DNA of 64,000 bases, from the NCBI RefSeq assembly GCF_030684315.1, contig NC_081364.1, positions 19,266,343 to 19,330,342 of the forward strand, given 5' to 3'. The position numbers and the translations under genes are program-made. This stretch comes from Stegostoma tigrinum. Lineage: Eukaryota. The notes below the pieces were generated by a model. That model ran no database searches, was not told the origin of the DNA, and saw only the letters and a list, made by a program, of their open reading frames with translations. Shown here one piece after another: positions 2,171-57,883 of this stretch (positions within the stretch are counted from its first letter, which is position 1; every line of letters starts with the position of its first letter).

Positions 2171-5100
2171 ACTTTTCTGAATTTGGGTTTTCAGTGTCAT
2201 TGCAAGCGCATAAATCTCCTGACAAACTAGGTACTCATACTGTTAAGTACTAGCTTTGCTTGGCTTGGATGAATTTCAAAAGCAATTTGTACGCAAATAG
2301 AGCAACTTCTTGAATCTCACTGGCAGGTTGAGGGTGAACTGCCATTTTTCGGAGGCTAACAGCAGAGTGACAGTTCAAATCTCAGTCCCAACCCAATATG
2401 TCAACTTTCCTGCTCCTTTGATGCTGCCCTGGTCTGCTGTGTTCCTCCAGCTCCATACTGTGTTGTCACTTCACAGGGTGTCTTCTTCTACACAAGTTGC
2501 TACATGCTTTTACATTGCAACAAATTTCTCCCCAGAGTTTGGAAGCTATATTCAAAAACCACAGTTTTTATTTCCTATAAAACTAAAGCGACTACACTTC
2601 TGAAGTTCTTCAGTGGTTGTAAAGTACTTAGAGTTGCCCAGAGATCATGATAAGATGTTTTACAAATATCTGTATTCTCTTCTTTTACTGTCCAGTCTCA
2701 GGTCTGTCTACTGACTATATGTTCACTAACTCAAATGTCCCCAGAATGCTGACCAGAATGAATAATGTGGGTGTAACCAAATTATTTAACTCTTTAATGC
2801 CACAAGACAAAACTGAAATCTTGTATGCCAACACTTTACAGAATGTTAGTTATATCAAATATATTCCATCTGTCTTGAAACTTTGAAGGAAAGGACATGA
2901 AAAAATACCAACCATGAGAAGAATTGGGATACGTATAGCCATAATTGAATAATGGTATTACAAATAATTGTCCAACCTGCTCTGACCATGTTCCCTGTTA
3001 AGTAGAACAGGAATAGGATATTATTGTTCACTCTCAAGTTCTCAAGTGTAAGGATAATGTTTCCCTCAAAGAAAATTTTGGAAAATCCTGACTCCATCAG
3101 TAAAATTGCATGCACTACAACATTTGCAACAGCCCAAGAAAAGAACACATATATTTCAGCAATAGCTTATAGGTTTCTCTGCAGGCTGAGTATTTTTGCA
3201 GCTCTAACCCAGAAACAGTTACATTCACTTTCAGTCTCAAGTACAGCCAGACATGCTCCTGAATACGTGACATTTAATTTCTCAAAACAGCCATTCTAAA
3301 TAAAAGCTTAATTAAGGGAAAATTTATGTTTCAGACTTCCAGCCATGAAAAATTTGAGGCGAGCTTTATTTTTTAATCGAAAATTAAGCTGCATGCAGCT
3401 TTCAGGAATTCAGTCTATGTCTTCATTTGAGTTCAATTTGAAATTCGCTCATTGTTACAGATTATAGGTTAGTACAGTAAATTGCTATGCATATATTAAC
3501 CAGTTCTTAAGGTCAGGCAGTTGTGCCCTCTAGTGTTCTACTGGGAAATGGAGAAGGAGTCCTGTTTTGTTTTGTTAGTAGCCCTTTAGGGATTGTGTTA
3601 TTATGACAAAATGAGGCATAGTACCCGAACCACAATTCAAACCCTATTTTAGTTACGAAGATCACAGCTAAAATGTTCAGACTGTCACAACACACTCACT
3701 CCCTGTGTCCAAAGTTAGAAATGAAAAACATTACCAAGCTCTTTAACTATGGAATTTTAGAAAAGCATTGCTTTAATTTTAATCTCTAACCATTCACAAT
3801 GTTTCAAAAATTCATAGTTTAATGTAGTTCTCCAAATGTTTGCCAGAAAAATGTGGCTCACCATTGGTTTGAGCCACCTCTTTCATTCTTCCCACAGATT
3901 CACTGAAATCAGCTAGATGTCACTTCTTTTAGAACTAACATGATGTGGAGCATAAACAATGAAGATCCTCAGCTTTTTATACCCTTATTTATTAAAAGGA
4001 TGAGGACTAGGCTGCTTTTATTGTCCTTCCCTAATTGCCCAGAGTCAACCACATTGCTGTGGACCTGGAGTCACATGTAGGCCAGTTTCCTTCTGTAAAG
4101 GACATTAGTGAACCAGGTGGGTTTTTCCTGACAATGGATTAATGGTCATCAGTAGATTTGTAATTTCAGATATTTTTATTGAATTCAAATTAAAGCATCT
4201 GGCTGGTGGGATTTGAACCTGGGGTACCCAGAACATTATCTGGGTGTCTGGATTACCAGTTCAGCAATCATATCACTAGGCCATTGCCTCCCTGGCAACA
4301 CTGATGTCCCTTTAAACATCTTAAATGTTCACTGCAATATATTAGCAATGATATTCAACAATTTCTCAATTGTACTGTGGTCTCTATTCAAGGGTTTCTG
4401 TTATGTAGTTCAACTCATCCATATATGGAGTCACATGAAGTACATAATGGAGTTAATGTTTTACACAGTCCTGCCATCAGAGGTGCAGCTATGTCTATGG
4501 AAGGAAAGTGGCATAAAGTAATTCTAACATTATTTTGATCAAAGCTGATGGGATCGGACAATATGCTCAAAATGTTCTGCTGTCTGAAGTGGATGGGGGA
4601 CATGTCAATAAGGCACAGTTGTTCCCCAAGAAGGTGGGCTTAATATTTATCTTACTATTGTGAAGCACCAGTTAAAGGAACTACCTAAAATGAAGTTCTG
4701 GCCTTCAACTGAAAAACAAATTCAAAAATGTGTTACATATTGTTATCTCTATACTTTCATTTCGTTCTGAAAGCTCTAAATCCCAAAAAGGTTCTTGTCA
4801 GCCATTAGAACTAATTCCACAGAAATTGATTCTAAGAATATCCAGATATCGTATGGACAATCGCTGTTTGTAAGAGATGAACTTTGTAATCTCAATTCAG
4901 TGTAATTGTTACAAATTCATCTGTTATCATTCTATACCATAGTACAAATCCTGGAATTCTTAACCAGTAATCGCAGATTGTATAAAATATTTACCAGAGC
5001 ATTCATTTCAGCTGCAAAAAAATTGTAAACACTCAATACAAATCAGCAAAACCTCTCAAAAACATAGGAGGGAATGTGAGCATATATTCAGCCCAACAAA

Positions 5101-5306
5101 TTTATGCATTACATCGGCATTGGGATTGCTTCTATTTCAACTGCACTCTTACAAATTCATCAGTTTAAATCTTCATTTCTGGGTGCTTGGGAGACTACAA
5201 GATATGGAATGAAAAGATCTTTTATTTAAAGGACCTTAAGTCAATTGAGATATCTGATTATTAAAAGGCAAACACAAAATGTGAAAAAAAGTTGAGAAAG
5301 GAATTA

Positions 5307-5497
5307 AAGTTGATACAGTGTGGAGCTGGAGGAACACAGCAGGTCAGGCAGCATCAGAGGAGCAGGAAAGTTGATGTTTCAGGTCAGGACCCTTCATCCT
5401 GCTCTTCTGATGCTGCCTGACCTGCTGTGTTCTTCCAGTTCCACACTGTAACAACTTCTACTTCCAGCATCTGCAGTTCTAGCTATTTCCTAGTTGC
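5307..5497. mobile_element. Palindromic PLE-derived mini-element with 14-bp TSD
   Basis: Inverted arms 5314-5367 and 5397-5450. A truncated HHR remnant lies in the loop (minus strand gatgaagggtcctgacctgaaacatc). The tail cttccagcatctgcagtt follows. TSD tgagaaaggaatta is at 5293-5306 and 5498-5511. Confidence 0.8.
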
Positions 5498-7744
5498 TGA
5501 GAAAGGAATTAGAATGTTATTCTGATATCCCGACAACTGATTGTTGTGGAACATCACAATCAATGAATGGATTTAATTGGAGTTTTCAGGAAAGTATGTC
5601 TTGATTGGTTATTGTTAACCAATTTTCAATTACTACCTAGAAATAAATATAACTATAAAACCAAAATGGAATAGTCACAAAACATGGAAAGATTGTCACC
5701 TCAGTGGTACTACCAGGTGATCCTCTTTTCTAAGATGAATTAAATACAAAAGTCAATCACATATACCCAACTTCCATTTGTAACTGATCTGTAAAAGATT
5801 GAGGAAAGGCATCTCAAATGAGTTTCTAAACAATCCAATTACAGGACCTAACCATTTAGACATGTATCATGCAAAACTGAACTGCTGATTTAAAAACAAT
5901 TTCAGCCTTCATGGAGGAACAGTATTTTTCCCGATAATTGTGTAGCACGATGCAGCTGCTATTCATTTAGCAGGATAAATCACCATTCATATCCATGTTT
6001 CTGAATAAAATGATCATTAATTCATAAGTGTAGAGGTGATGTTATTTCATGTGTATCCAAAATGATCTTCATTTATCCAGCAAGATAAGGGTTTAAAGTT
6101 ACTACTGACTTTCTAAGACTGCATGAAGTGTCGATTCAGGATGGAAATACATGCAACTGCTCTTCACATTAATTGGTATTTCATGGAAAGACTGTCAATA
6201 CAATGCAGTAATGGATAAATATTCATGCCAAACACTACTCAACTCTATTACTTTACTGTACAAATGGTAGTAATTACACAAATTATGTTTCCCAACAGAA
6301 TAAATACATTTTAAAAAATATGAACATTTACAAACAAAATTATTCAACTTAATCACATTGAAGTTATACTGCATATTTATACAGATCAAAAAATTGCCAT
6401 TTTATTTGTAAGACACTCTATTTTTGTGTAGATAAAAGATTAGGGTTTACTTCAATTTTTATAATTTAAGTCTCTCATTAAGTCAAAATTTTGGCAGTTG
6501 ATTACAAATGAATTCCATGAGATGAATAGTGAACAAAATGGTGCAATCACACAGCCTTGCTTGATTCTAGTCAGGATACAACAGAGTTTAGTCCCCAATA
6601 CAGAGCAAAGCACAGTTACGGTAATAGTCATGCAACGGTCACAGCATAGAACCAAACTTTGTTTGACTGCCAAGTTTCTGGAGAACATTCCAAAGGGCTT
6701 AATGGTTGATGGAGTCAAAGCTTTCCAGAGATCAATAACAGCTCTATGGAGTAGCTGGATTGCTCCAGACCTTTATTGGATTTCTTGAATGTCGATGGTT
6801 CCTTTGGATAGCTGGAAATCACATTGGGTCTATAGAAGGATGTTGTTTTTGATAAATAGGAAACAGATCAGAAGGATACATCTGAGAATTTTCCCAAGAG
6901 TGAATAGAGAGAGATATGCCTCTATAGCTGCAACAAATCAATTTAATGAAGAATAGTGTTGGTATTGTGGAATTTGAGAGGTTTTTGTATAAGTTCTGGA
7001 AGTTTGAGTGAGATTTTATGACCACCAGCTTTATAGAGCTTGGCACAAAGTTTGTTCTGAGCTTGTTATTTTTCATCTGATGGATAGGCTTTTCTAAGTG
7101 CTGGTAGTACACCCAAATTTGATCTCTCAAACTGCTAAGGGATGGTTTTGCCCTATTATTGACTTGCAGTTGAGAAGTTTGAGTTATATTGCTTCTATTG
7201 ATCTTGGATGGCTATATTGTCTTTGGGAAGATTATTGCTGTCTGAAAAGGGAGGAAGACTGTACGATTTTGGTCCATAAATGGTCTTTGTAAACTGGAAA
7301 AGCTGAATATGCTGGGCAGGTTGGCATAGCATTGGAATTTGTTGGCCTTTCATACCCACAAAGTATTCTTGTTGAAACATATGTTCTGAACTTTGAGTTG
7401 TAGGATAAATGTAAAGTGTTCAGAACTGCATTGCTCTCTCAATCCTAATACCCACCCATAAGAAGTGAAAATGGACTTGATGCGATTACCAAATATGGAT
7501 CAGATAAATATAATGCATTATCATGTACAGACTACTAAGGGTTTAATAGAAAATCTCTGCATATTTACAAACTGACTGTTCAATTTTTATAAATTAATCT
7601 GACCTATACAGGTCAGAATTCTGTTGCCAGTGATGATACCATGTCTAAACAGATGTTTCTGCCTCAATTTTACCTGATCAAGTGACAACAAAACCGGTGC
7701 TAAAAGCAATAACTTTTATTTATATAGAAACCTTAATGAATAGG

Positions 7745-12969: not shown

Positions 12970-13480
12970 AAAAACCGAAAGAATTGTGGATGCTGCAAAT
13001 CAGAAACAAAAACAGCAATTGCTGGAAAAGCTCAGCGGGTCTGGCAGCATCAGTGGGGAGAAATCAGAGTTAAGATTTCAGGTTCAGTGACCCTTCTTTA
13101 GAATTGACTGTAGCTAGGAATTTGTTTATTTTTAAGCAGAACTGAAGGTGGAAGGAGGGGTTGTGAAAAAAACAATAGGTGGAAATAGAGTCTAAAGAAA
13201 TAGAAGGACAGTTGGACAGACAAAGGAGTGGAAAACAGTCAGCCTAGGAGAACAAAGACAAATCTACTAATGGGGGTTATTACTGGAAAACAATGGGTTA
13301 TGTGTAATAGCAGACCATATCAGAACAAGGCCTGGTGTGTGGGGCCTGAGGTAAGGACATTGGAGAAAGTGCCTCAAACATTAAAACTGTTGAACCCAAG
13401 ATTAGAGTCCAGAAGGCTGTAGAATTCACAGTGGAAAATGAGATGCTGTTCTTCCAGTTTGCACTCTACTGGATCACTGC
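12970..13480 (-). mobile_element. PLE 3' fragment (second family) with decayed HHR motif
   Basis: Terminal sequence aaccgaaagaattgtggatgctgcaaatcagaaacaaaaacagcaattgctggaaaagctcagc is shared with 31278-31490 and 42298-42430. A decayed endonuclease end lies at about 13370-13480. Confidence 0.6.
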
Positions 13481-22376: not shown

Positions 22377-23597
22377 TTGTAATTTCAGGACTGGATGATA
22401 GAAGTCAATTATCTTGTCGGAACGGCACTGTTACTTGTAGGCATTGTTGCTATTTAAATTCTGTGTTTTTGGTCACCAAGGATTCATTCGTCAAACTTCT
22501 GCTTTCAGCAATATCTCAGAGATATGGATTATGAAGTAGACTGGTTGGGCCTCACAGACCTTCAGGAAAAAAGATGAAAATTCTATAATTATTAATATGA
22601 CTCCAGTTAGATTCTGTATGTTCTAAATCAGTAAGTAAATATAGACTAAAGCAAATGGCAAGTAGCGAGAATTATAAAATACAACAGGGTAAACATAAAC
22701 TACTGTCAATACAACAGCAATTACAAATGAGGCACAAAGGCAACACTAATTACAGTAGATAGACTGAGATGGCAAAGATAATTGAAAATGGCCCATTACT
22801 TCCTAAATGAATGAAGAAGATTTTCCCCAGAGTGAAAATAAGTTCTAACTTTTAATGCTCTCCACTACACATTTACATAGCTTGCCTGACTATTCCACAC
22901 AATTAGCATTCTCTACTCTATCGTGTTCTGCTCCTCCATGATTGGCTGATGTGTTCAAATTTACCAATGGCTTTCCAGGAACTATAAAATATATGTGAAG
23001 TGAGAATTGCTCAAGTGCCAGAAGTAAGTCTAATTCCACTACTTCAATAATCAGACAAATCTTTTGGAACCAAATGCATGACATTTTTACTTATATTCAT
23101 TTTGCTTTTCCTTAAACTAGCATTTATATGGCACATTTATAAAACACTTTAAATTGAACAACTGTTGGACTGAAGTACTGCACTTGCAAGGCAATCTAAA
23201 TTGTATGCTCAAATCCTGTTGTTGCAGTGAACGTAAGTATTTCCAAAGCTACAGGCAAAAACCTACACACTTGGATGATTCATGGATTTTGCCACAGAAT
23301 GTGATTACATTTTACAGATTTTTTTTATTCTGGTCAGCTTGTTACCAAGACACATCTTGCTGACTGAAGTCCAAGCACATATTAGAAAAAGCCAAGGCTC
23401 CTGAAAGATACAGGAGTTCAACAAAAAACCAAATCATACAGCTTAACAGTACAAAGCATTATAAAAATTCCAAAAATCATGTGGCATAAATGTAATCGGA
23501 GATAATGGGAACTGCAGATGCTGGAGATTCCAAGATAACAAAATGTGAGGCTGGATGAACACAGCAGGCCAAGCAGCATCTCAGGAGCACAAAAGCT

Positions 23598-23625
23598 GAC
23601 GTTTCGGGCCTAGACCCTTCATCAG
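23598..23625 (-). ncRNA. Minimal hammerhead ribozyme motif (inverted arm copy)
   Basis: Reverse complement reads CTGATGA-a-gggtc-ta-ggccc-GAAA-CGTC. Confidence 0.65.
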
Positions 23626-24249
23626 AGAGGGGGATGGGGGGAGGGAACTGGAATAAATAGGGAGAGAGGGGGAGGCGGACCGAAGATGGAGAGTAAAGAA
23701 GATAGGTGGAGAGAGTGTAGGTGGGGAGGTAGGGAGGGGATAGGTCAGTCCAGGGAAGACGGACAGGTCAAGGAGGTGGGATGAGGTTAGTAGGTAGCTG
23801 GGGGTGCGGCTTGGGGTGGGAGGAAGGGATGGGTGAGAGGAAGAACCGGTTAGGGAGGCAGAGACAGGTTGGACTGGTTTTGGGATGCAGTGGGTGGGGG
23901 GGAAGAGCTGGGCTGGTTGTGTGGTGCAGTGGGGGGAGGGGATGAACTGGGCTGGTTTAGGGATGCAGTGGGGGAAGGGGAGATTTTGAAACTGGTGAAG
24001 TCCACATTGATACCATATGGCTGCAGGGTTCCCAGGCGGAATATGAGTTGCTGTTCCTGCAACCTTCGGGTGGCATCATTGTGGCAGTGCAGGAGGCCCA
24101 TGATGGACATGTCATCAAGAGAATGGGAGGGGGAGTGGAAATGGTTTGCGACTGGGAGGTGCAGTTGTTTGTTGCGAACTGAGCGGAGGTGTTCTGCAAA
24201 GCGGTCCCCAAGCCTCCGCTTGGTTTCCCCAATGTAGAGAAAGCCGCAC

Positions 24250-25967
24250 TCCCCCGCACGGCCCGTTTCTATCTCCTTCCCAAAATCCACAAACCTGCCT
24301 GCCCTGGTCGACCCATCGTCTCAGCCTGCTCCTGCCCCACCGAACTCATCTCCACCTATCTGGACTCCATTTTCTCCCCTTTGGTCCAGGAACTCCCCAC
24401 CTATGTCCGTGACACCACCCACGCCCTCCACCTCCTCCAGGACTTCCAATTCCCTGGCCCCCAACACCTCATATTCACCATGGACGTCCAGTCCCTGTAC
24501 ACCTGCATTCCGCATGGAGATGGCCTCAAGGCCCTCCGCTTCTTCCTGTCCCGCAGGCCCGACCAGGCCCCCTCCACCGACACTCTCATCCGCCTAGCGG
24601 AACTCGTCCTCACACTCAACAACTTCTCTTTTGACTCCTCCCACTTCCTACAGACTAAGGGGGTGGCCATGGGCACCCGCATGGGCCCCAGCTATGCCTG
24701 CCTCTTTGTAGGTTACGTGGAACAGTCCATCTTCCGCACCTACACAGGCCCCAAACCCCACCTCTTCCTCCGGTACATTGATGACTGTATCGGCGCCGCC
24801 TCTTGCTCCCCAGAGGAGCTCGAACAGTTCATCCACTTCACCAACACCTTCCACCCCAACCTTCAGTTCACCTGGGCCATCTCCAGCACATCCCTCACCT
24901 TCCTGGACCTCTCAGTCTCCATCTCAGGCAACCAGCTTGTAACTGATGTCCATTTCAAGCCCACCGACTCCCACAGCTACCTAGAATACACCTCCTCCCA
25001 CCCACCCTCCTGCAAAAATTCCATCCCCTATTCCCAATTCCTCCGCCTCCGCCGCATCTGCTCCCACGATAAGACATTCCACTCCCGCACATCCCAGATG
25101 TCCAAGTTCTTTAAGGACCGCAACTTCCCCCCCACGGTGATTGAGAACGCCCTTGACCGCGTCTCCCGCATTTCCCGCGACACATCCCTCACACCCCGCC
25201 CCCGCCACAACCGCCCCAAGAGGATCCCCCTCGTTCTCACACACCACCCTACCAACCTCCGGATACAACGCATTATCCTCCGACACTTCCGCCATTTACA
25301 ATCCGACCCCACCACCCAAGACATTTTTCCATCCCCACCCCTGTCTGCTTTCCGGAGAGACCACTCTCTCCGTGACTCCCTTGTTCGCTCCACACTGCCC
25401 TCCAACCCCACCACACCCGGCACCTTCCCCTGCAACCGCAGGAAATGCTACACTTGTCCCCACACCTCCTCCCTCACCCCCATCCCAGGCCCCAAGATGA
25501 CATTCCACATTAAGCAGAGGTTCACCTGCACATCTGCCAATGTGATATACTGCATCCACTGTACCCGGTGCGGCTTTCTCTACATTGGGGAAACCAAGCG
25601 GAGGCTTGGGGACCGCTTTGCAGAACACCTCCGCTCAGTTCGCAACAAACCACTGCACCTCCCAGTCGCAAACCATTTCCACTCCCCCTCCCATTCTCTT
25701 GATGACATGTCCATCATGGGCCTCCTGCACTGCCACAATGATGCCACCCGAAGGTTGCAGGAACAGCAACTCATATTCCGCCTGGGAACCCTGCAGCCAT
25801 ATGGTATCAATGTGGACTTCACCAGTTTCAAAATCTCCCCTTCCCCCACTGCATCCCTAAACCAGCCCAGTTCATCCCCTACCCCCACTGCACCACACAA
25901 CCAGCCCAGCTCTTCCCCCCCACCCACTGCATCCCAAAACCAGTCCAACCTGTCTCTGCCTCCCTAA
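24250..25967 (+). CDS. PLE ORF, 5'-truncated but stop-free: reverse transcriptase, Cys-rich linker and GIY-YIG endonuclease
   Basis: RT motifs FTMDVQSLYT, GVAMGTRMGPSYA and FLRYIDD. Linker CNRRKCYTC. GIY-YIG VIYCIHC...YIGETKRRLGDRFAEH...GIN. The first ~20 aa of the 592-aa ORF come from the inverted arm. Confidence 0.93.
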
Positions 25968-26191
25968 CCGGTTCTTCCTCTCACCCATCCCTTCCTCCCA
26001 CCCCAAGCCGCACCCCCAGCTACCTACTAACCTCATCCCACCTCCTTGACCTGTCCGTCTTCCCTGGACTGACCTATCCCCTCCCTACCTCCCCACCTAC
26101 ACTCTCTCCACCTATCTTCTTTACTCTCCATCTTCGGTCCGCCTCCCCCTCTCTCCCTATTTATTCCAGTTCCCTCCCCCCATCCCCCTCT

Positions 26192-26219
26192 CTGATGAAG
26201 GGTCTAGGCCCGAAACGTC
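26192..26219 (+). ncRNA. Minimal hammerhead ribozyme motif in the PLE 3' terminal region
   Basis: CTGATGA 26192-26198, stem II gggtc/ggccc, GAAA 26212-26215, palindromic ACGT mini-stem III and a GTC cleavage triplet. Local stem I is only about 2 bp. Confidence 0.65.
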
Positions 26220-26458
26220 AGCTTTTGTGCTCCTGAGATGCTGCTTGGCCTGCTGTGTTCATCCAGCCTCACATTTTGTTATCTTGGCATAAATGTAAGT
26301 TTTTTTTCATACAACAGCTTCCACAACCAGCACATCACTGACCACAGATGCCACCATTCCTGACCCCCTGAATCCCTCCTCAACATCCTGTCCACCCATT
26401 TATTATTCAGTCATAAGGAGCAATAGCGTGTCATGATTTCAGTCATCCTACCACACTG

Positions 26459-31050: not shown

Positions 31051-31277
31051 TTCTAAAATACATGCAAAGTGCCTCAAAGATTACCGCCCAATGGCTCTGA
31101 CCTCCATAATCATGAAGTGGTTCAAGACAGTAATCATGGCTCACATCAGTTCTCGTCTCCCAGTCTGTCTCGATCTCTTGAAATCTGCCTAACGGCAGAA
31201 CAGGCCCACAGCAGATGTCATTTCCACAAGCCTTCACTCATCCCTGGAAAATCTGGATGTCAGCCTCCTACCTACCA

Positions 31278-31490
31278 ACCAAAAGAGCTGCAGATACCGT
31301 AAATCAGAAACAAAAACAGAAGTTGCTGGATAGCTCAGCAGGTCTGGCAGCATTTGTGAACAGAAATCAGAGTTTCTGGTTGGCTGAGGAAGGGTCACAA
31401 CAGGAATATTAACCCAAAACGTTAACTCTGATTTCTCTCCACAGATATTGCCAGAACTGCTGAGCTTTTCCAGCAACTTCTGTTTTTGTT
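31278..31490. mobile_element. Palindromic PLE-derived mini-element (second family)
   Basis: Inverted arms about 31309-31374 and 31424-31490. The loop holds ctgaggaagggtca...cccaaaacgttaa (degenerate HHR). The tail is on the left. Confidence 0.7.
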
Positions 31491-31849
31491 CCTAGTCATT
31501 AACTACAGCTCTCCCTTCAACACTATAATCCCAAACAAACTAGTCTCAGAACTTGGGTTTTGGCTCTGCCCTCTGCAACTGCATCCTCAGCTTCCTGACC
31601 CACACACTGCAATCTGTGAAGATAGGCAACAGTACCACCTCCACAATAATACTCAATACGAGCACTCTGTCAGGATGCGTATTCAGTCCCCTACTGTACT
31701 CTCTGTATGGTCGTGATAGTGTGGGCAAATTTCGTACTAACACCATCTACAAGTTCACTGACAGTGCCACTGTTGTAGGATGGATATCAAACAATAACGA
31801 GTCAGAATATGGGAAGGAAACAGAATGTGTCACAGTGCAAAGATAACTG

Positions 31850-32610: not shown

Positions 32611-33669
32611 TTAAATAACAATCCCTCCCTCAATGTCAGCAAAACTAAAGAACTGATCATTGATTTCAGAAAGAAAGGAGGAGTACACAACGCTACCTAC
32701 ATCAATGGAGCTGAAGTGGAGACGGTCAAGAGTGTCAAGTTCCGAGGGGAGATGATCACCACTTGGTGTGGCAACTGCTGTGCCCAGGACCATAAGAAAC
32801 CACAGAAAGTTGTGTACACAGCCCAGACCTCCATGAGAGCCAACCTCCCATCCACAGACTCCATCTAAATTTCTTGTTGCCACAGAAAGTCTGCCAACAT
32901 CAAAGACCCCTCCCACCCCAATAATACCCTGTTCCACCCTCTTCCATCAGGCAGAAAATACAGAAGCTTAAACACACATACCAACAGGTTCAAGAACAGC
33001 TTCTTCACTGCATTTATTAGACTGCTGACTGGACCTCATTGATTTCAAATCTAATGTTGATCTTGCTTTTATGCACCTCCTGTGCAGCCGTAACCTTGTA
33101 TGCCTTGCCCTATCGAAAGATTGTATGTTATGATCTGCCTGTACTGCATGCAAAACAAAGCCTTTCACTGTACTTAGATACATGTAATAAGAAAAAAAAT
33201 CAAAATCAAATCAAGAACAAGTCAACAAAATCAGAAATTGTTAGAAAAATTCAGCAGGTCTGGCAGCATCTATGGCAAGAAAGCAGGGTCAACAGAATAA
33301 AGGGGGGGGGGGTAACAGGACCTCAAACACTGACTGCTTTCTTACCACAGATGCTGTTCGGCCTGCTGAGCTTTTCTAGCATTTTCTGATCTTGTTCCAT
33401 TCCTCAGCCACCTTCCATACATGGAATGAAACTTCCACACCCAGAACAGCTCCATTTTTATCCACCGATTGGTTCTTGACGGCTAATTCCACTTTCCCTC
33501 AAAACCTCTCCATTTCTCTCTAAAGATCCCATTTTAAATGTACCCGCCAAGCTTTGAGTTTCACTCCCTTGTATCAAATTTGATTTCGGGTCTGGTTTGC
33601 CACACCACCCACGCTGTTGTAAAGCGTCGTGGGTCGTTGTTTTGCAGGATTCAGGTCCTGTTAACTGAC

Positions 33670-36002: not shown

Positions 36003-37851
36003 AGATAATGGGACCTGCAGATGCTGGAGAATCTGAGATAACAAAGTATGGGGCTGGATGAACACAGCAGGCCAAGCAGCATCTTAGGAGCACAAAAGCT
36101 GACATTTCAGGCCTAGACCCTTCATCAGAAAAGGGGATGGGGAGAGGGTTCTGAAATAAATAGGGAGAGAGGGGGAGGCAGATCGAAGATGCATAGAGGA
36201 GAAGATAGGTGGAGAGGAGCGTATAGGTGGGGAAGTAGGGAGGGGATGGGTCAGTCCGGGGAGGACGGACAGGTCAAGAGGGCGGGATGGGGTTAGTAGG
36301 TAGGAAATGGAGGTGTGGCTTGAGGTGGGGATAGGTGAGAGGAAGAACAGGTTAGGGAGGCGGGGACGAGCTGGGCTGGTTTTGGGATGCAGTGGGGGAA
36401 GGGGAGATTTTGAAGCTTGTGAAATCCGCATTGATACCATTGGGCTGCAGTGTTCCCAAGCGGAATATGAGTTGCTGTTTCTTCGGGTGGCATCATTGTG
36501 GCACTGCAGGAGGTCCAGGATGGACATGTCGTCGAAGGAATGGGTGGGGGAGTTGAAATGGTTCGCGACTGAGAGGTGCAGTTGTTTATTGTGAGCTGAG
36601 CGTAGGTGTTCTGCAAAGCGGTCCCCAAGCCCCCGTTTGGTTTCCCCGATGTAGAGGAAGCCACAACAGGTACAGCAGACGCAGTATACCACATTGGCAG
36701 ATGTGCAGGTGAACATCTGCTTAATATGGAACGTCATCTTGGGGCCTGGGATGGGGGTGAGGGAGGTGGTGTGGGGGCAGGTGTAGCACTTCCTGCGGTT
36801 GCAGCGGTAAGTGCCAGATGTGGCGGCGTAGGAGGGGAGTGTGGACCGGACAAGGGAGTCCCGGAGAGAGTGGTCTCTCCGGAAGGCAGAGATGGGGATG
36901 GAAAAATGTCTTTAGTGGTGGGGTCGGATTGTAGATGGCGGAAGTGTCGGAGGATGATGCATTGTATCCGGAGGTTGGTGGGGTGGTATGTGAGAACGAG
37001 GGGGATTGTCTTTTGGCGGTTATTGCAGGGATGTTCAAGGACTGCAACTTCCTCCCAGCAGTGGTCAAGAACGCCCTCGACCACGTCTCCCACACTTCCC
37101 ACACCTCCTCCCACACCCCCATCCCAGGCCCCAAGATGACTTTCCACATCAAGCAGATGCTCACCTGCACATCTGCCAACGTGGCATACTGCATCCACTG
37201 TACACAGTGTGGCTTCATCTACATTGGGGAAACCAAACGGAGGCTTGGGGACCACTTTGCAGAACACCAAAGCTCGGTTCACAATAAACAACTGCACCTC
37301 CCAGTTGCGAACCATTTCAACTCCCTCTCCCATTCCTTAGGTGACACGTCCATCCTGGGCCTCTTGCAGTGCCACAATGATGCCACCTGATGGTTGCAGG
37401 AACAGCAACTCATATTCCGCTTGGGAACCCTGCAGCCCAATGGTATCAATGTGGATTTCACCAGCTTCAAAATCTCCCCTCCCCCCACTGCATCCCAAAA
37501 CCAGCCCAGCTCGTCCCCGCCTCCCTAACTTGTTCTTCCTCTCACCTATCCCTTCCACCCACCCCAAGCCGCACCTCCATTTCCTACCTACCAACCTCAT
37601 CCCGCCCCCTTGACCTGTCCATCCTCCCCGGATTGACCTATCCCCTCCCTGCCTCCCCACCTATACTGTCTTCTCCACCTATCTTCTCCTCTATCCATCT
37701 TCAGTCTGCCTCCCCCTCTCTCCCTATTTATTTCAGAATCCTCTCCCAATCCCCCTTTTCTGATGAAGGGTCTAGGCCAAAAACATCAGCTTTTGTGCTC
37801 CTAAGATGCTGCTTGGCCTGCTGTGCTCATCCAGCTCCACACTTTGTTATC
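36003..37851. mobile_element. Inverted-arm Neptune-like PLE (older subfamily) with 17-bp TSD
   Basis: Minus arm about 36003-37030 and plus arm about 37031-37851 each encode a decayed GIY-YIG. TSD tcagagggcacagtggg is at 35986-36002 and 37852-37868. HHR motifs are decayed (36100-36127; 37760-37787). Confidence 0.92.
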
Positions 37852-42109: not shown

Positions 42110-42195
42110 TCAGCGAAGTGGACACAAGCTCGTTTTCAACTGTAAACATTCTTCGTCAGAGACTACATGAGAAGATCCAAGAAAGCCGTGGGCAG
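42110..42195 (+). CDS. SURF6: Surfeit locus protein 6, coding exon 3
   Basis: Acceptor gcttttcag|, donor CAG|gtatat. Encodes VNILRQRLHEKIQESRGQ, a conserved SURF6 motif. Confidence 0.9.
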
Positions 42196-42602: not shown

Positions 42603-43733
42603 GAGATAATGGGAACTGCAGATGCTGGAGAATTCCAAGATAATAAAATGTGAGGCTGGATGAACACAGCAGGCCAAGCAGCATCTCCCTGCAACACATC
42701 CCTCACACCCCGCCCCCGCCACAACCGCCCTAAGAGGATCCCCCTCGTTCTCACACACCACCCTACCAACCTCCGGATACAACGCATCATCCTCCGACAC
42801 TTCCGCCATTTACAATCCGACCCCACCACCCAAGACATTTTTCCATCCCCTCCCCTGTCTGCTTTCCGGAGAGACCACTCTCTCCGTGACTCCCTTGTTC
42901 ACTCCACACTGCCCTCCAACCCCACCACACCCGGCACCTTCCCCTGCAACCACAGGAAATGCTACACTTGTCCCCACACCTCCTCCCTCACCCCTATCCC
43001 AGGCCCCAAGATGACATTCCACATTAAGCAGAGGTTCACCTGCACATCTGCCAATGTGGTATACTGCATCCACTGTACCCGGTGCGGCTTCCTCTACATT
43101 GGGGAAACCAAGCGGAGGCTTGGGGACCGCTTTGCAGAACACCTCCGCTCAGTTCGCAACAAACAACTGCACCTCCCAGTCGCAAACCATTTCCCCTCCC
43201 CCTCCCATTCTGTAGATGACATGTCCATCATGGGCCTCCTGCACTGCCACAATGATGCCACCCGAAGGTTGCAGGAACAGCAACTCATATTCCGCCTGGG
43301 AACCCTGCAGCCATATGGTATCAATGTGGACTTCGCCAGTTTCAAAATCTCCCCTTCCCCTACTGCATCCCTAAACCAGCCCAGTTCGTCCCCTCCCCCC
43401 ACTGCACCACACAACCAGCCCAGCTCTCTCCCCCCCCCCCCCCCCCACTGCATCCCAAAACCAGTCCAACCTGTCTCTGCCTCCCTAACCGGTTCTTCCT
43501 CTCACCCATCCCCAGCTACCTACTAACCTCATCCCACCTCCTTGACCTGTCCGTCTTCCCTGGACTGACCTATCCCCTCCCTACCTGCCCACCTATACCC
43601 TCTCCACCTATCTTCTTTACTCTCCATATTCGGTCCGCCTCCCCCTCTCTCCCTATTTATTCCAGTTCCCTCTCCCCATCCCCCTCTCTGATGAAGGGTC
43701 TAGGCCCGAAACGTCAAAAAAGCTTTTGTGCTC
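42603..43733. mobile_element. Young Neptune-like PLE with inverted terminal segment and 15-bp TSD, in SURF6 intron 3
   Basis: Inverted terminus about 42603-42687 is joined to a forward GIY-YIG body. TSD caaaggtttttattt is at 42588-42602 and 43734-43748. HHR motif at 43688-43715. Confidence 0.93.
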
Positions 43734-43804
43734 CAAAGGTTTTTATTTACTGCCTTTTTGTTACTCTATCATTAATTGTGTTATGTCTTTGTGTTTTTTG
43801 ACAG

Positions 43805-44491
43805 TGTAATCCAAAAGGCTTGCTTCCTGAAGAATTAGAGAAGAAACGTCTGCACAGGAAGCGGGAGAGGGAAAAGAAAAAACAGAAACGGAAAGAGATG
43901 CGAATGAAGAAAGAACATAAAATTGTCCAGGAAGATAGTACTGCACCAAAGGCTGAAGATACAGAGAAAAATGACATGTCCAAGAAAGCGGAAAATCAAC
44001 TGCTTTTCAATAAAGTAGACGTGCCATCTGAGGTAGTTAAAGACAAAAAGCTGAAAAGAAAAGAGAAACGGCAGAATACTAAAGGTGGCATCACACCTCT
44101 CACTGGCAAAAACTACAAGCAACTCTTATCTAGACTGGAAGCCCAAAAGAATAAGATTGAAGAGTTGAAGAGTAAAGATGAAAATAAAGCAAAAGAAGTT
44201 GAAACAAAGATGAAGTGGACCAATGCTCTGTATAAGGCGGAGGGCCTGAAAATCAAAGACAATGAAGAATTGCTGAAAGCGTCACTAAAGAGAAAAGAAA
44301 AACACAAAGCCCAACGACAGAAGAACTGGGAAAAGCGAACAGAACACCTTGTTGAAAAGATGCAACGTCATCAAGATAAGAGGAAAAGAAACATCATGAA
44401 AAAGAAACGAGCCAAGGTAGAAAGGAAAAAGGACAAGGCAAGAAAGAAAGGACGTATTCTACCTGAAGATTTAAAAAAAGCAAATCTTTGA
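43805..44491 (+). CDS. SURF6: Surfeit locus protein 6, last coding exon
   Basis: Acceptor gtgttttttgacag|TGT is in frame with ORF 43820..44491. SURF6 domain motifs LTGKNYKQLL, WTNALYKAEGLKIKDNEELLKASLKRKEK and ARKKGRILPEDL. Confidence 0.95.
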   Translation, partial: CNPKGLLPEELEKKRLHRKREREKKKQKRKEMRMKKEHKIVQEDSTAPKAEDTEKNDMSKKAENQLLFNKVDVPSEVVKDKKLKRKEKRQNTKGGITPLTGKNYKQLLSRLEAQKNKIEELKSKDENKAKEVETKMKWTNALYKAEGLKIKDNEELLKASLKRKEKHKAQRQKNWEKRTEHLVEKMQRHQDKRKRNIMKKKRAKVERKKDKARKKGRILPEDLKKANL

Positions 44492-56410: not shown

Positions 56411-56445
56411 CACTAGCTTTCGGAGCATGGCCCCTTCATCAGGTG
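56411..56445 (-). ncRNA. Minimal type I hammerhead ribozyme motif (best-formed in the window)
   Basis: Minus strand reads cac-CTGATGA-a-ggggc-cat-gctcc-GAAA-GCTA-gtg. Stem I is cac/gtg, stem II is 5 bp, with a palindromic AGCT and a CTA cleavage triplet. Confidence 0.75.
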
Positions 56446-56888: not shown

Positions 56889-57104
56889 GAGATACCAAGG
56901 TGTAAAGCTGGATGAACACAGCAGGCCAAGCTGCATCAGAGGAGCAGGAAAGCTGAAGTTTTGGGTTTGGACCCTTCTTCAGAAAGGGTCCAGACCCAAA
57001 ATGTCAGCTTTCCTGCTCCTCTGATATTACTTGGCCTGCTGCATTCATCCAGCTCTACACCTTGGTATCTCAGATTCTCCAGCATCAGCAATTCCTACTC
57101 TCTC
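56889..57104. mobile_element. Palindromic PLE-derived mini-element nested in the PLE above
   Basis: Inverted arms about 56889-56976 and 56984-57071 meet at two head-to-head HHR remnants. An unpaired tail (57072-57104) follows. It sits in a (GA)n tract. Confidence 0.8.
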
Positions 57105-57239: not shown

Positions 57240-57883
57240 ATTTCAGTGGGGTCACATGTAGTGCCTCTTGAACGCAAGATCCTGGTTGAGGTCGTCCTCA
57301 TGGATACTGAACTTGGCTATCAGCCTTTGCTCGGTGACTCTTCATCGTTGTGTATCCTGAAGTCTGCCTTGGAGGACGTTTACATGAAGATCCCAGAAGG
57401 ATTGAGAATCAGATTGCATAGCTTTAAGATCATTGACAAAAGGAGCAAGTGTGACGTGAGAACATTTTCTTTCACACAGTGAATAATTGGGGTCAGGAAT
57501 ACATTGTCTGGAAGTGTGGTGGAAGGAAGCTTAATTGCGGCATCCCAGAGGGCATGAGAATTCCTATTTGAATAGAATAAGCTTATAGGGAAAAGGCAGG
57601 AAAAAAAGGCAGAAAGCTAATATGGGCACAATGAGATGAATGACCTCCCTCACGAAAATGTTCTCACGTCACACTTGCTCCTTTTGTCAATGATCTTAAA
57701 GCTATGCAATCTGATTCTCAATCCTTCTGGGATCTTCATGTAAACGTCCTCCAAGGCAGACTTCAGGATACACAACGATGAAGAGTCACCGAGCAGAGGC
57801 TGATAGCCAAGTTCAGTATCCATGAGGACGACCTCAACCAGGATCTTGCGTTCAAGAGGCACTACATGTGACCCCACTGAAAT
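57240..57883. repeat. 230-bp near-perfect inverted duplication with 184-bp spacer
   Basis: 57240-57469 is the reverse complement of 57654-57883, with one mismatch noticed. The same peptide appears in ORFs 57198..57482(+) and 57650..57877(-). Confidence 0.95.

Follow-up and report, generated by a model that had tools for sequence, protein, structure and literature searches.

Head-to-head insertions have already been described for PLEs. Inverted pLTRs of rotifer PLEs carry a 31-bp tail on one of the two and are flanked by TSDs of 8–10 bp (PMC3846280). An inverted 5'-truncated copy with a 30–40 bp tail at one end is given as a general PLE trait in PMC8557442, where the formation of both the inverted ends and the tail is described as undefined. 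The inverted repeats vary in size by copy (PMC2377424), and inverted pLTRs as well as short 3' extensions are presented as copy-level peculiarities (PMC8969392). The protein of an anole PLE, a predicted dimer, cleaves and extends both target strands; RT starts at two internal sites bounding the tail, in a region close to the ORF start, and a dead ribozyme leaves insertion equally good in vitro (PMC11167929). Masses of dispersed minimal hammerheads, mostly single and tied to truncated PLEs, are reported from metazoa together with opposite-strand hammerhead pairs 100–700 bp apart (PMC4209133), and non-LTR retrozymes are present in a cartilaginous fish (bioRxiv 10.64898/2026.07.22.740005).

The window, i.e., the whole 64-kb stretch of shark DNA analyzed here, contains five small palindromes, all of which are head-to-head pairs of PLE 3' ends. 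Like the inverted-pLTR insertions in PMC3846280, PMC8557442, and PMC2377424, they combine a head-to-head terminal segment with a 30–40 nt tail, a TSD, variable 5' truncation, and a hammerhead in the pLTR; unlike those insertions as described, the shark arms measure only 45–100 nt, lack coding sequence and include a long arm that ends preferentially at the ribozyme edge. They share the features of EN+ inverted-pLTR PLE insertions, and our verdict is a minimal variant of this known form with one possibly unreported regularity. The two tail-bounding RT starts and the both-strand extension of Anolis PAc (Poseidon) in vitro would give the same geometry, although stub palindromes are absent from the accessible account of that element (PMC11167929). 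As with non-LTR retrozymes, the units are short, non-coding, hammerhead-bearing and derived from PLE pLTRs; retrozymes as described, however, repeat head to tail in tandem and contain two or more complete ribozymes, whereas the shark units are joined head-to-head and have a single near-complete core at best (bioRxiv 10.64898/2026.07.22.740005), and the combination that defines a retrozyme (head-to-tail order, two complete hammerheads) is not found in them.

Small palindromes and larger inverted insertions

The 5307 unit is composed of the following parts:

5293–5306, + strand: left TSD, 14 bp, repeated exactly at 5498–5511
5307–5398, − strand: long arm, a PLE 3' terminal segment without tail
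5373–5398, − strand: minimal hammerhead remnant, G5 to C17, placed by alignment and stem II pairing
5397–5457, + strand: short arm, placed by the arm alignment (63/68)
5458–5497, + strand: unpaired PLE tail of about 40 nt, with no left-arm partner in the fold
5498–5511, + strand: right TSD, exact copy of 5293–5306

The long arm stops 2 nt inside the hammerhead core (G5) and matches the terminus of an RT/GIY-YIG element of the same window (element A, below) at 81% identity across 80 nt; the tail is homologous to those of elements A, B, and D. The hammerhead cut is predicted between 5373 and 5372, and the short arm starts at C3+33, about 6 nt 3' of that predicted site. The arms share 2 nt at the apex (microhomology) and are identical at 63 of 68 bases (5300/5307–5367 vs. 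5397–5465), and the stretch 5307–5497 folds with −124.8 kcal/mol (z −15.5), a stability equaled by none of 200 shuffles. The clean 14-bp TSD that an earlier note on this DNA had claimed for this copy is exact and scores 14 vs. a maximum of 9 among 300 random boundary pairs. Flanks and outer arms (5180–5335 and 5420–5630) show zero differences from independent contigs; among the listed contig records, none spans the whole stretch or the apex of that copy. In a second species, the right arm, tail, TSD, and flank are together on a single contig (6 differences over 126 bases), which makes the insertion old and shared, and no empty site was seen in the contigs.

The other four palindromes (strand not applicable to the units as a whole) are:

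232–406: small palindrome; short arm 232–278 (−), long arm from the hammerhead (C3 = 276), with the tail; arms 231–278 vs. 325–370, 40/45 identical; TSD 218–231/407–420 degenerate (12/14, score 8) and marginal, as 4 of 300 null pairs reach 8
31277–31493: small palindrome; tail-bearing short arm 31277–31374 (−), about 9 nt of filler, long arm from C3 = 31384; arms 31306–31374 vs. 31424–31493, 61/69 identical
33224–33399: fifth, older small palindrome; 33224–33286 vs. 33334–33396, 52/63 identical; neither tail nor TSD recognizable
56890–57104: small palindrome; the long arm (−) stops about 3 nt 5' of C3 (56982), and the short arm, which has a 33-nt tail, begins at 56984; arms 56889–56976 vs. 56984–57071, 78/88 identical; TSD 56877–89/57105–17 (12/13, score 10) within a GA/GT repeat

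The four units that the earlier note had named (at 5307, 231, 31278, and 56889) are indeed palindromes with inverted PLE terminal copies (63/68, 40/45, 61/69, and 78/88); the one at 33225 was absent from it. Arms of one unit differ by 7–17%, and in all five units no sequence in the window matches the left arm better than does the right arm of the same unit. The PLE origin agrees with the 78–83% identity of the 5307 and 56889 arms to the end of element A. That the units carry their own TSDs stands for a part of them: a TSD is clear in two of the five and marginal in one, and the boundary-pair search found none for the 31278 and 33225 units; nor was a paralogue found from which the empty site of the 31278 unit could be read. 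Similarly, the one-sided tail, put earlier at about 30 nt, spans 29–40 nt in four of the five units, the one at 5307 being longer than claimed.

When the window was searched with a profile of ten PLE ends, 26 matches had E below 0.01 (none of five shuffles came below E 0.36); they reduce to 19 loci in two sequence families. Six of these loci are single-arm stubs, for which the TSD search gave nothing above the null. Further copies were sought outside the window with an exact pattern, which had no match in viral contigs or in metagenomes. The matches of a looser pattern, 31 in metagenomes and 19 in prokaryote genomes, were rejected as chance, all 50 loci scoring at most 20.9 bits against the profile, mostly from the search pattern itself.

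The same geometry is seen in three larger insertions (strand again not applicable):

23496–26290: element A; 723-nt inverted arm with a 31-nt tail, 2-kb sense arm, 14-bp TSD
36003–37851: element B; large inverted PLE insertion with the tail on the left and a 17-bp TSD
42603–43734: element C; 85-nt inverted arm with the tail, 1.05-kb sense arm with GIY-YIG; TSD of 14 bp exact, 17/18 when extended

The frame 24183–25967 of element A encodes a 5'-truncated RT followed by GIY-YIG (RVT_1, then GIY-YIG, both under the Pfam curated cut-off); its best homologues have E below 1e-150, the closest named relatives being from zebra shark (94%) and whale shark (88%), both carpet sharks, so that the host is itself probably a carpet shark. 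The coding arm of element C is 94% like element A. The geometry that the earlier note had seen as common to the small units and the inverted PLEs at 23496 and 36003, head-to-head with a one-sided tail, holds, and it extends with TSDs of 13–17 bp from 200 bp (5307 and 56889) through element C to elements A and B. Since element C is a coding insertion with an inverted arm of 85 nt, very short inverted arms arise on ordinary insertions. The small units grade into full PLE insertions, and element C bridges the size gap.

Several further observations concern these insertions and their surroundings. The left arm of element B stops at the equivalent of position 25200 in element A, and next to it comes a piece in sense orientation that corresponds to 25110–25197, as if the last 90 nt had been inverted a second time. 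In element C, five additional A occupy precisely the position where the hammerhead is predicted to cut (43688–43734), and the sense arm stops about 14 nt past it; in this one case, the pattern could reflect cleavage followed by tailing, a template jump, or quasi-palindrome correction. A host SURF6 coding region (43802–44491, + strand, Pfam E 7e-39) begins about 50 bp past the right TSD of this element. Near-perfect inverted duplications other than PLE termini are found at 57240–57469/57654–57883 (230 bp, 99.6%), 60781–60835/61273–61327 (55 bp, 98%), and 26594–26627/26960–26993 (34 bp, 94%), with copies 180–440 bp apart and, judged by eye, at or in LINE-like fragments; their appearance is that of templated insertions made during end-joining repair. 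At the boundary of terminus and tail, several copies (regions of 23527, 36032, 57072, and 10575) have a run of pyrimidines with AG after it, and the second PLE family has another such run before a conserved ATG-like core; both look like splice acceptors.

The ribozyme edge and the diversity of apexes

A strict minimal hammerhead descriptor matched seven times in the window, while 200 shuffles gave 0.045 matches on average (maximum 1), and the stem II base pairs in the hammerhead alignment vary between PLE families; the shark PLE terminal segment carries a minimal hammerhead. Numbering follows the standard scheme, as in PMC4209133 and PMC11167929, and two of 15 rows of the hammerhead table, one base out of register, were excluded. 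Like the metazoan PLE hammerheads of PMC4209133, the shark ones have a minimal type I core, a bulged base before stem II and a palindromic mini stem III; unlike the opposite-strand pairs in that account, the palindromes usually hold one core each and their arms abut directly. Cores were tabulated for four of the five small units (the 33225 core, being degenerate, lies outside the table): the 231 core has both catalytic boxes intact along with stem II mismatches, and the other three have core changes or a clipped first base. A search of Rfam returned no hammerhead family and only miRNA-hairpin matches far under gathering scores, including sub-threshold matches to miRNA precursor models for the hairpins at 5335–5428 and 56935–57024; such hairpins, if transcribed, could be substrates for small-RNA processing or editing. 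Two more minimal hammerheads (56418–56442 and 42134–42159, both − strand) are unlike both families studied and are probably those of other PLE lineages.

The earlier note had placed a hammerhead remnant at the apex of each unit. The apex is indeed tied to the position of the hammerhead, but the ribozyme is off-centre, on one arm, with its 5' edge abutting the apex. In all five small palindromes the longer arm ends within about −6 to +7 of C3, beyond which lies the other arm or a short filler. Six single-arm stubs (2386, 10478, 34568, 35804, 39493, and 42298) likewise end within −6 to +10 of C3, bringing such ends to 11 of the 19 PLE loci in the window; two of these 11 are weak members (35804 aligns loosely to −32, and 39493 is degenerate). 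Six loci extend far upstream of C3, namely, elements A, B, C, and D (50572) and those at 12973 and 40672, and two more are degenerate fragments. Under geometric truncation with means of 50–1000 nt the clustering has P of at most 2e-6, for an interval chosen post hoc. Contigs point the same way: 2,256, 1,030, and 2,307 of them, in runs X1, X13, and X2, respectively, have loose ends after 5395, with about eight letters in common, to about C3−3, followed by A/T-rich sequence (agreement 0.44–0.45); as contig counting is biased toward unique junctions, these numbers are support rather than proof. The ribozyme edge is a preferred and not an absolute stop, since 455 X1 contigs run past 5398 into the purine-rich upstream tract. 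Elements A, B, C, and D have a C-rich tract that begins 0–4 nt upstream of C3. No C-run comes closer to C3 than about 15 nt in the second family (12973, 40672), the stubs of which (231, 10478, 31278, and 42298) end at the same place relative to C3.

All five long arms cross the predicted cut site and end about 27 nt farther 5', so that the long arm cannot have been copied from a cleaved 3' RNA. In the literature searched, mostly open-access papers without their supplements, we found neither a report of a PLE stop at the hammerhead 5' edge nor a description of stub palindromes in sharks; the preferred stop at this edge is, therefore, possibly an unreported regularity.

The apexes, in turn, differ in all five small units. 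Short arms start at about +52, +33, +29, +24, and +7 relative to C3 (with the predicted cut near +27), and the arms overlap by 2 nt at 5307, about 2 at 56889, 3–4 at 231, and up to 7 in element C; the 31278 apex has filler and no overlap. Contigs of four runs were aligned to 5180–5630 at 80% likeness, with the reservation that contigs represent palindromes badly. Run X1 alone gave 65,130, nearly all aligned to the 5307 unit, with a summed depth (to be read as a ratio only, not as copy number) of 576,663 at 5387 and 977,165 at 5420 vs. 2,235–3,725 at 5396–5399. The 15 listed of 154 joints comprise four normal terminus-to-tail joints, eight of apex type and three of other kinds. Those of apex type connect 5389–5398 to the opposite strand at 5340, 5343, 5350, 5351, 5353 (twice), 5362, and 5365, i.e., seven short-arm ends, each on 2–5 contigs of about single-copy depth, and are read as the apexes of other palindromes; by coordinate conversion, these listed short-arm ends lie +8 to +33 from the predicted cut. 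Compared with the 5307 apex, apex-crossing records have length offsets of −6 to +12 nt (by subtraction from the listed records); three X1 records share an offset of −4 nt and could represent a shared junction, i.e., a minor subfamily. Back-jumps at varied points (12 listed of 180 rows) are consistent with the partial tandems known for PLEs.

Routes to a head-to-head insertion

Overall, we consider the units to be the shortest ordinary insertions of endonuclease-bearing PLEs, primed at both nicks with the cDNAs joined head-to-head, and the hairpins to be dead-on-arrival products rather than templates; for this explanation as a whole we estimate a probability of about 0.7. The enzyme of the element would nick both target strands 13–17 bp apart, a separate cDNA would likely be primed from each nick, and the two would then be joined head-to-head at a few matching bases, a step with which the apex overlaps fit as microhomology. 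By analogy with another PLE studied in vitro, the one-sided tail may result from RT starting at two sites spaced by about 30 nt. Two cDNAs from two nicks would yield outward-facing ends, a TSD and a one-sided tail together; these features, the overlap or filler at the apex, the differing apexes, and the edge-ending long arm are all directly observed. In five of the seven scorable head-to-head insertions (5307, 31278, 56889, A, and C) each arm has sequence that the other lacks, the ribozyme or body being on one arm and the tail on the other, and thus neither is a DNA copy of the other and both were copied from a longer template. There are counter-cases (the 231 unit has the tail on its longer arm, and element B is ambiguous or opposite), and five of seven is not significant; a rule that the tail is always on the shorter arm was downgraded, since element B and the 231 unit disagree.

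Concerning the edge itself, RT may start at the start-site copy near the transcript 5' end and run off the RNA. Such run-off requires an RNA beginning just 5' of the ribozyme, which we take, within the two-nick explanation, as roughly an even bet. An initiator-like motif with A at C3−4 occurs in element D and at 12973, and not in A, B, 40672, or 42298. Translating the terminus plus tail failed to reveal where the shark ORF starts, and N-terminal homologues had no alignment in this region. Transcription of PLEs begins in the pLTR of the upstream partner (PMC6765202). The D. virilis start is upstream of the ribozyme and separated from it by 46 nt plus a 75-nt intron that ends at the ribozyme 5' edge (PMC4209133, PMC2377424); a start that far upstream argues against run-off at C3−3. 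We also considered splicing to an acceptor at this edge, as in D. virilis, and disfavor it, as the loose ends have no shared upstream exon. With the odds somewhat against it, we tentatively suggest that the arm of about 100 nt from ribozyme to terminus is a PLE "strong-stop" cDNA, made by run-off at the RNA 5' end, with a second RT 30 nt behind giving the tail arm.

The main alternative to run-off for the stop at C3−3 keeps the same insertion route and assumes that RT stalls in the C-rich tract that begins immediately upstream, or that the cDNA, being G-rich, folds, the link to the ribozyme being coincidental. RT pauses at homopolymer runs, and the tract is well placed in elements A, B, C, and D, but the stubs of the second family end at the same place without a C-run near C3, and we regard stalling as unlikely. 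A larger role for the ribozyme, in which self-cleavage frees a short 3' RNA that templates the arms, draws on short arms that start 3' of or near the cut in four of five units (about +1, +6, +24, and −4), on listed contig ends lying wholly 3' of it, and on the extra A of element C exactly at the cut site. Nevertheless, all five long arms, as well as the 56889 short arm, cross the cut with the core retained, the short-arm starts are scattered with no pile-up at +1 among the listed joints, and ribozyme mutants left in vitro insertion unchanged (PMC11167929); we find this route improbable. Of the two options offered in the earlier note, a stereotyped by-product comes closer, though not in the form defined by ribozyme cleavage. 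Snap-back self-priming, i.e., folding of cDNA or antisense RNA at a small palindrome and subsequent copying, was proposed for inverted PLE junctions (PMC3846280, Discussion), and at the 56889 apex the arms close tightly around a loop of 7 nt; however, neither arm contains the other in five of seven insertions, which excludes copying of the first cDNA (but not an antisense RNA template), and we think it quite improbable.

The other option of the earlier note, a self-propagating hairpin mini-retroelement with one palindromic master, the transcript of which PLE RT and GIY-YIG copy in full, would be in keeping with compact units in two sequence families, each with the RT start region at both ends, with the three X1 contigs crossing the apex at one 4-nt offset, and with the known mobility of short pLTR-only PLE derivatives (PMC8557442, PMC3846280). 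Yet no apex is common to any two of the five units, the listed joints (15 of 154) have at most five contigs each at single-copy depth, the offsets of bridging records relative to the 5307 apex range from −6 to +12 nt, and an equally short inverted arm sits on the coding element C, which bridges the sizes. A single apex repeated in many copies was thus not found in the window or among the listed contig joints, and whole-hairpin copying seems to us very improbable; on balance, the mirror half is likely made anew at each insertion. Finally, almost no weight can be given to a MITE moved by a DNA transposase or to an assembly fold-back artefact. The units are short, palindromic, and high-copy, as MITEs are. 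MITEs of DDE superfamilies have fixed, short TSDs of 2–9 bp; those here are long and variable (13–17 bp overall, 13–14 bp in the small units). The inverted repeats of the units do not reach both ends, since 29–40 nt of unpaired tail lie between one arm and the TSD and break the terminal symmetry, and the sequence is that of a PLE, so the claim of the earlier note that the units are retrotransposed and not MITEs is upheld. Against an artefact speak the differences between arms (7–17%), the contigs confirming flanks and outer arms, and the second species with right arm, tail, TSD, and flank.

Implications for PLE biology

The aspect that a specialist might not expect is a stop at the 5' edge of the ribozyme and not at its cut site. 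For annotation, the lesson is that stub palindromes can pass for MITEs or miRNA hairpins. Eulor and UCON13 are ancient hairpin repeats. UCON13 is listed as Penelope in PMC5753468, the accessible part of which gives no structure for it, and PMC9004415 contributes nothing further on these repeats.

Within 220 bp, the stubs bring together both RT starts, both stops, and the TSD and thereby provide evidence on the mechanism of PLE integration; their regularity makes two-nick priming, snap-back, and a role of the ribozyme testable. If the strong-stop reading were true, shark genomes would hold tens of thousands of natural snapshots of two-primer integration, in which the RNA 5' end and both RT start sites would be mapped to the base.
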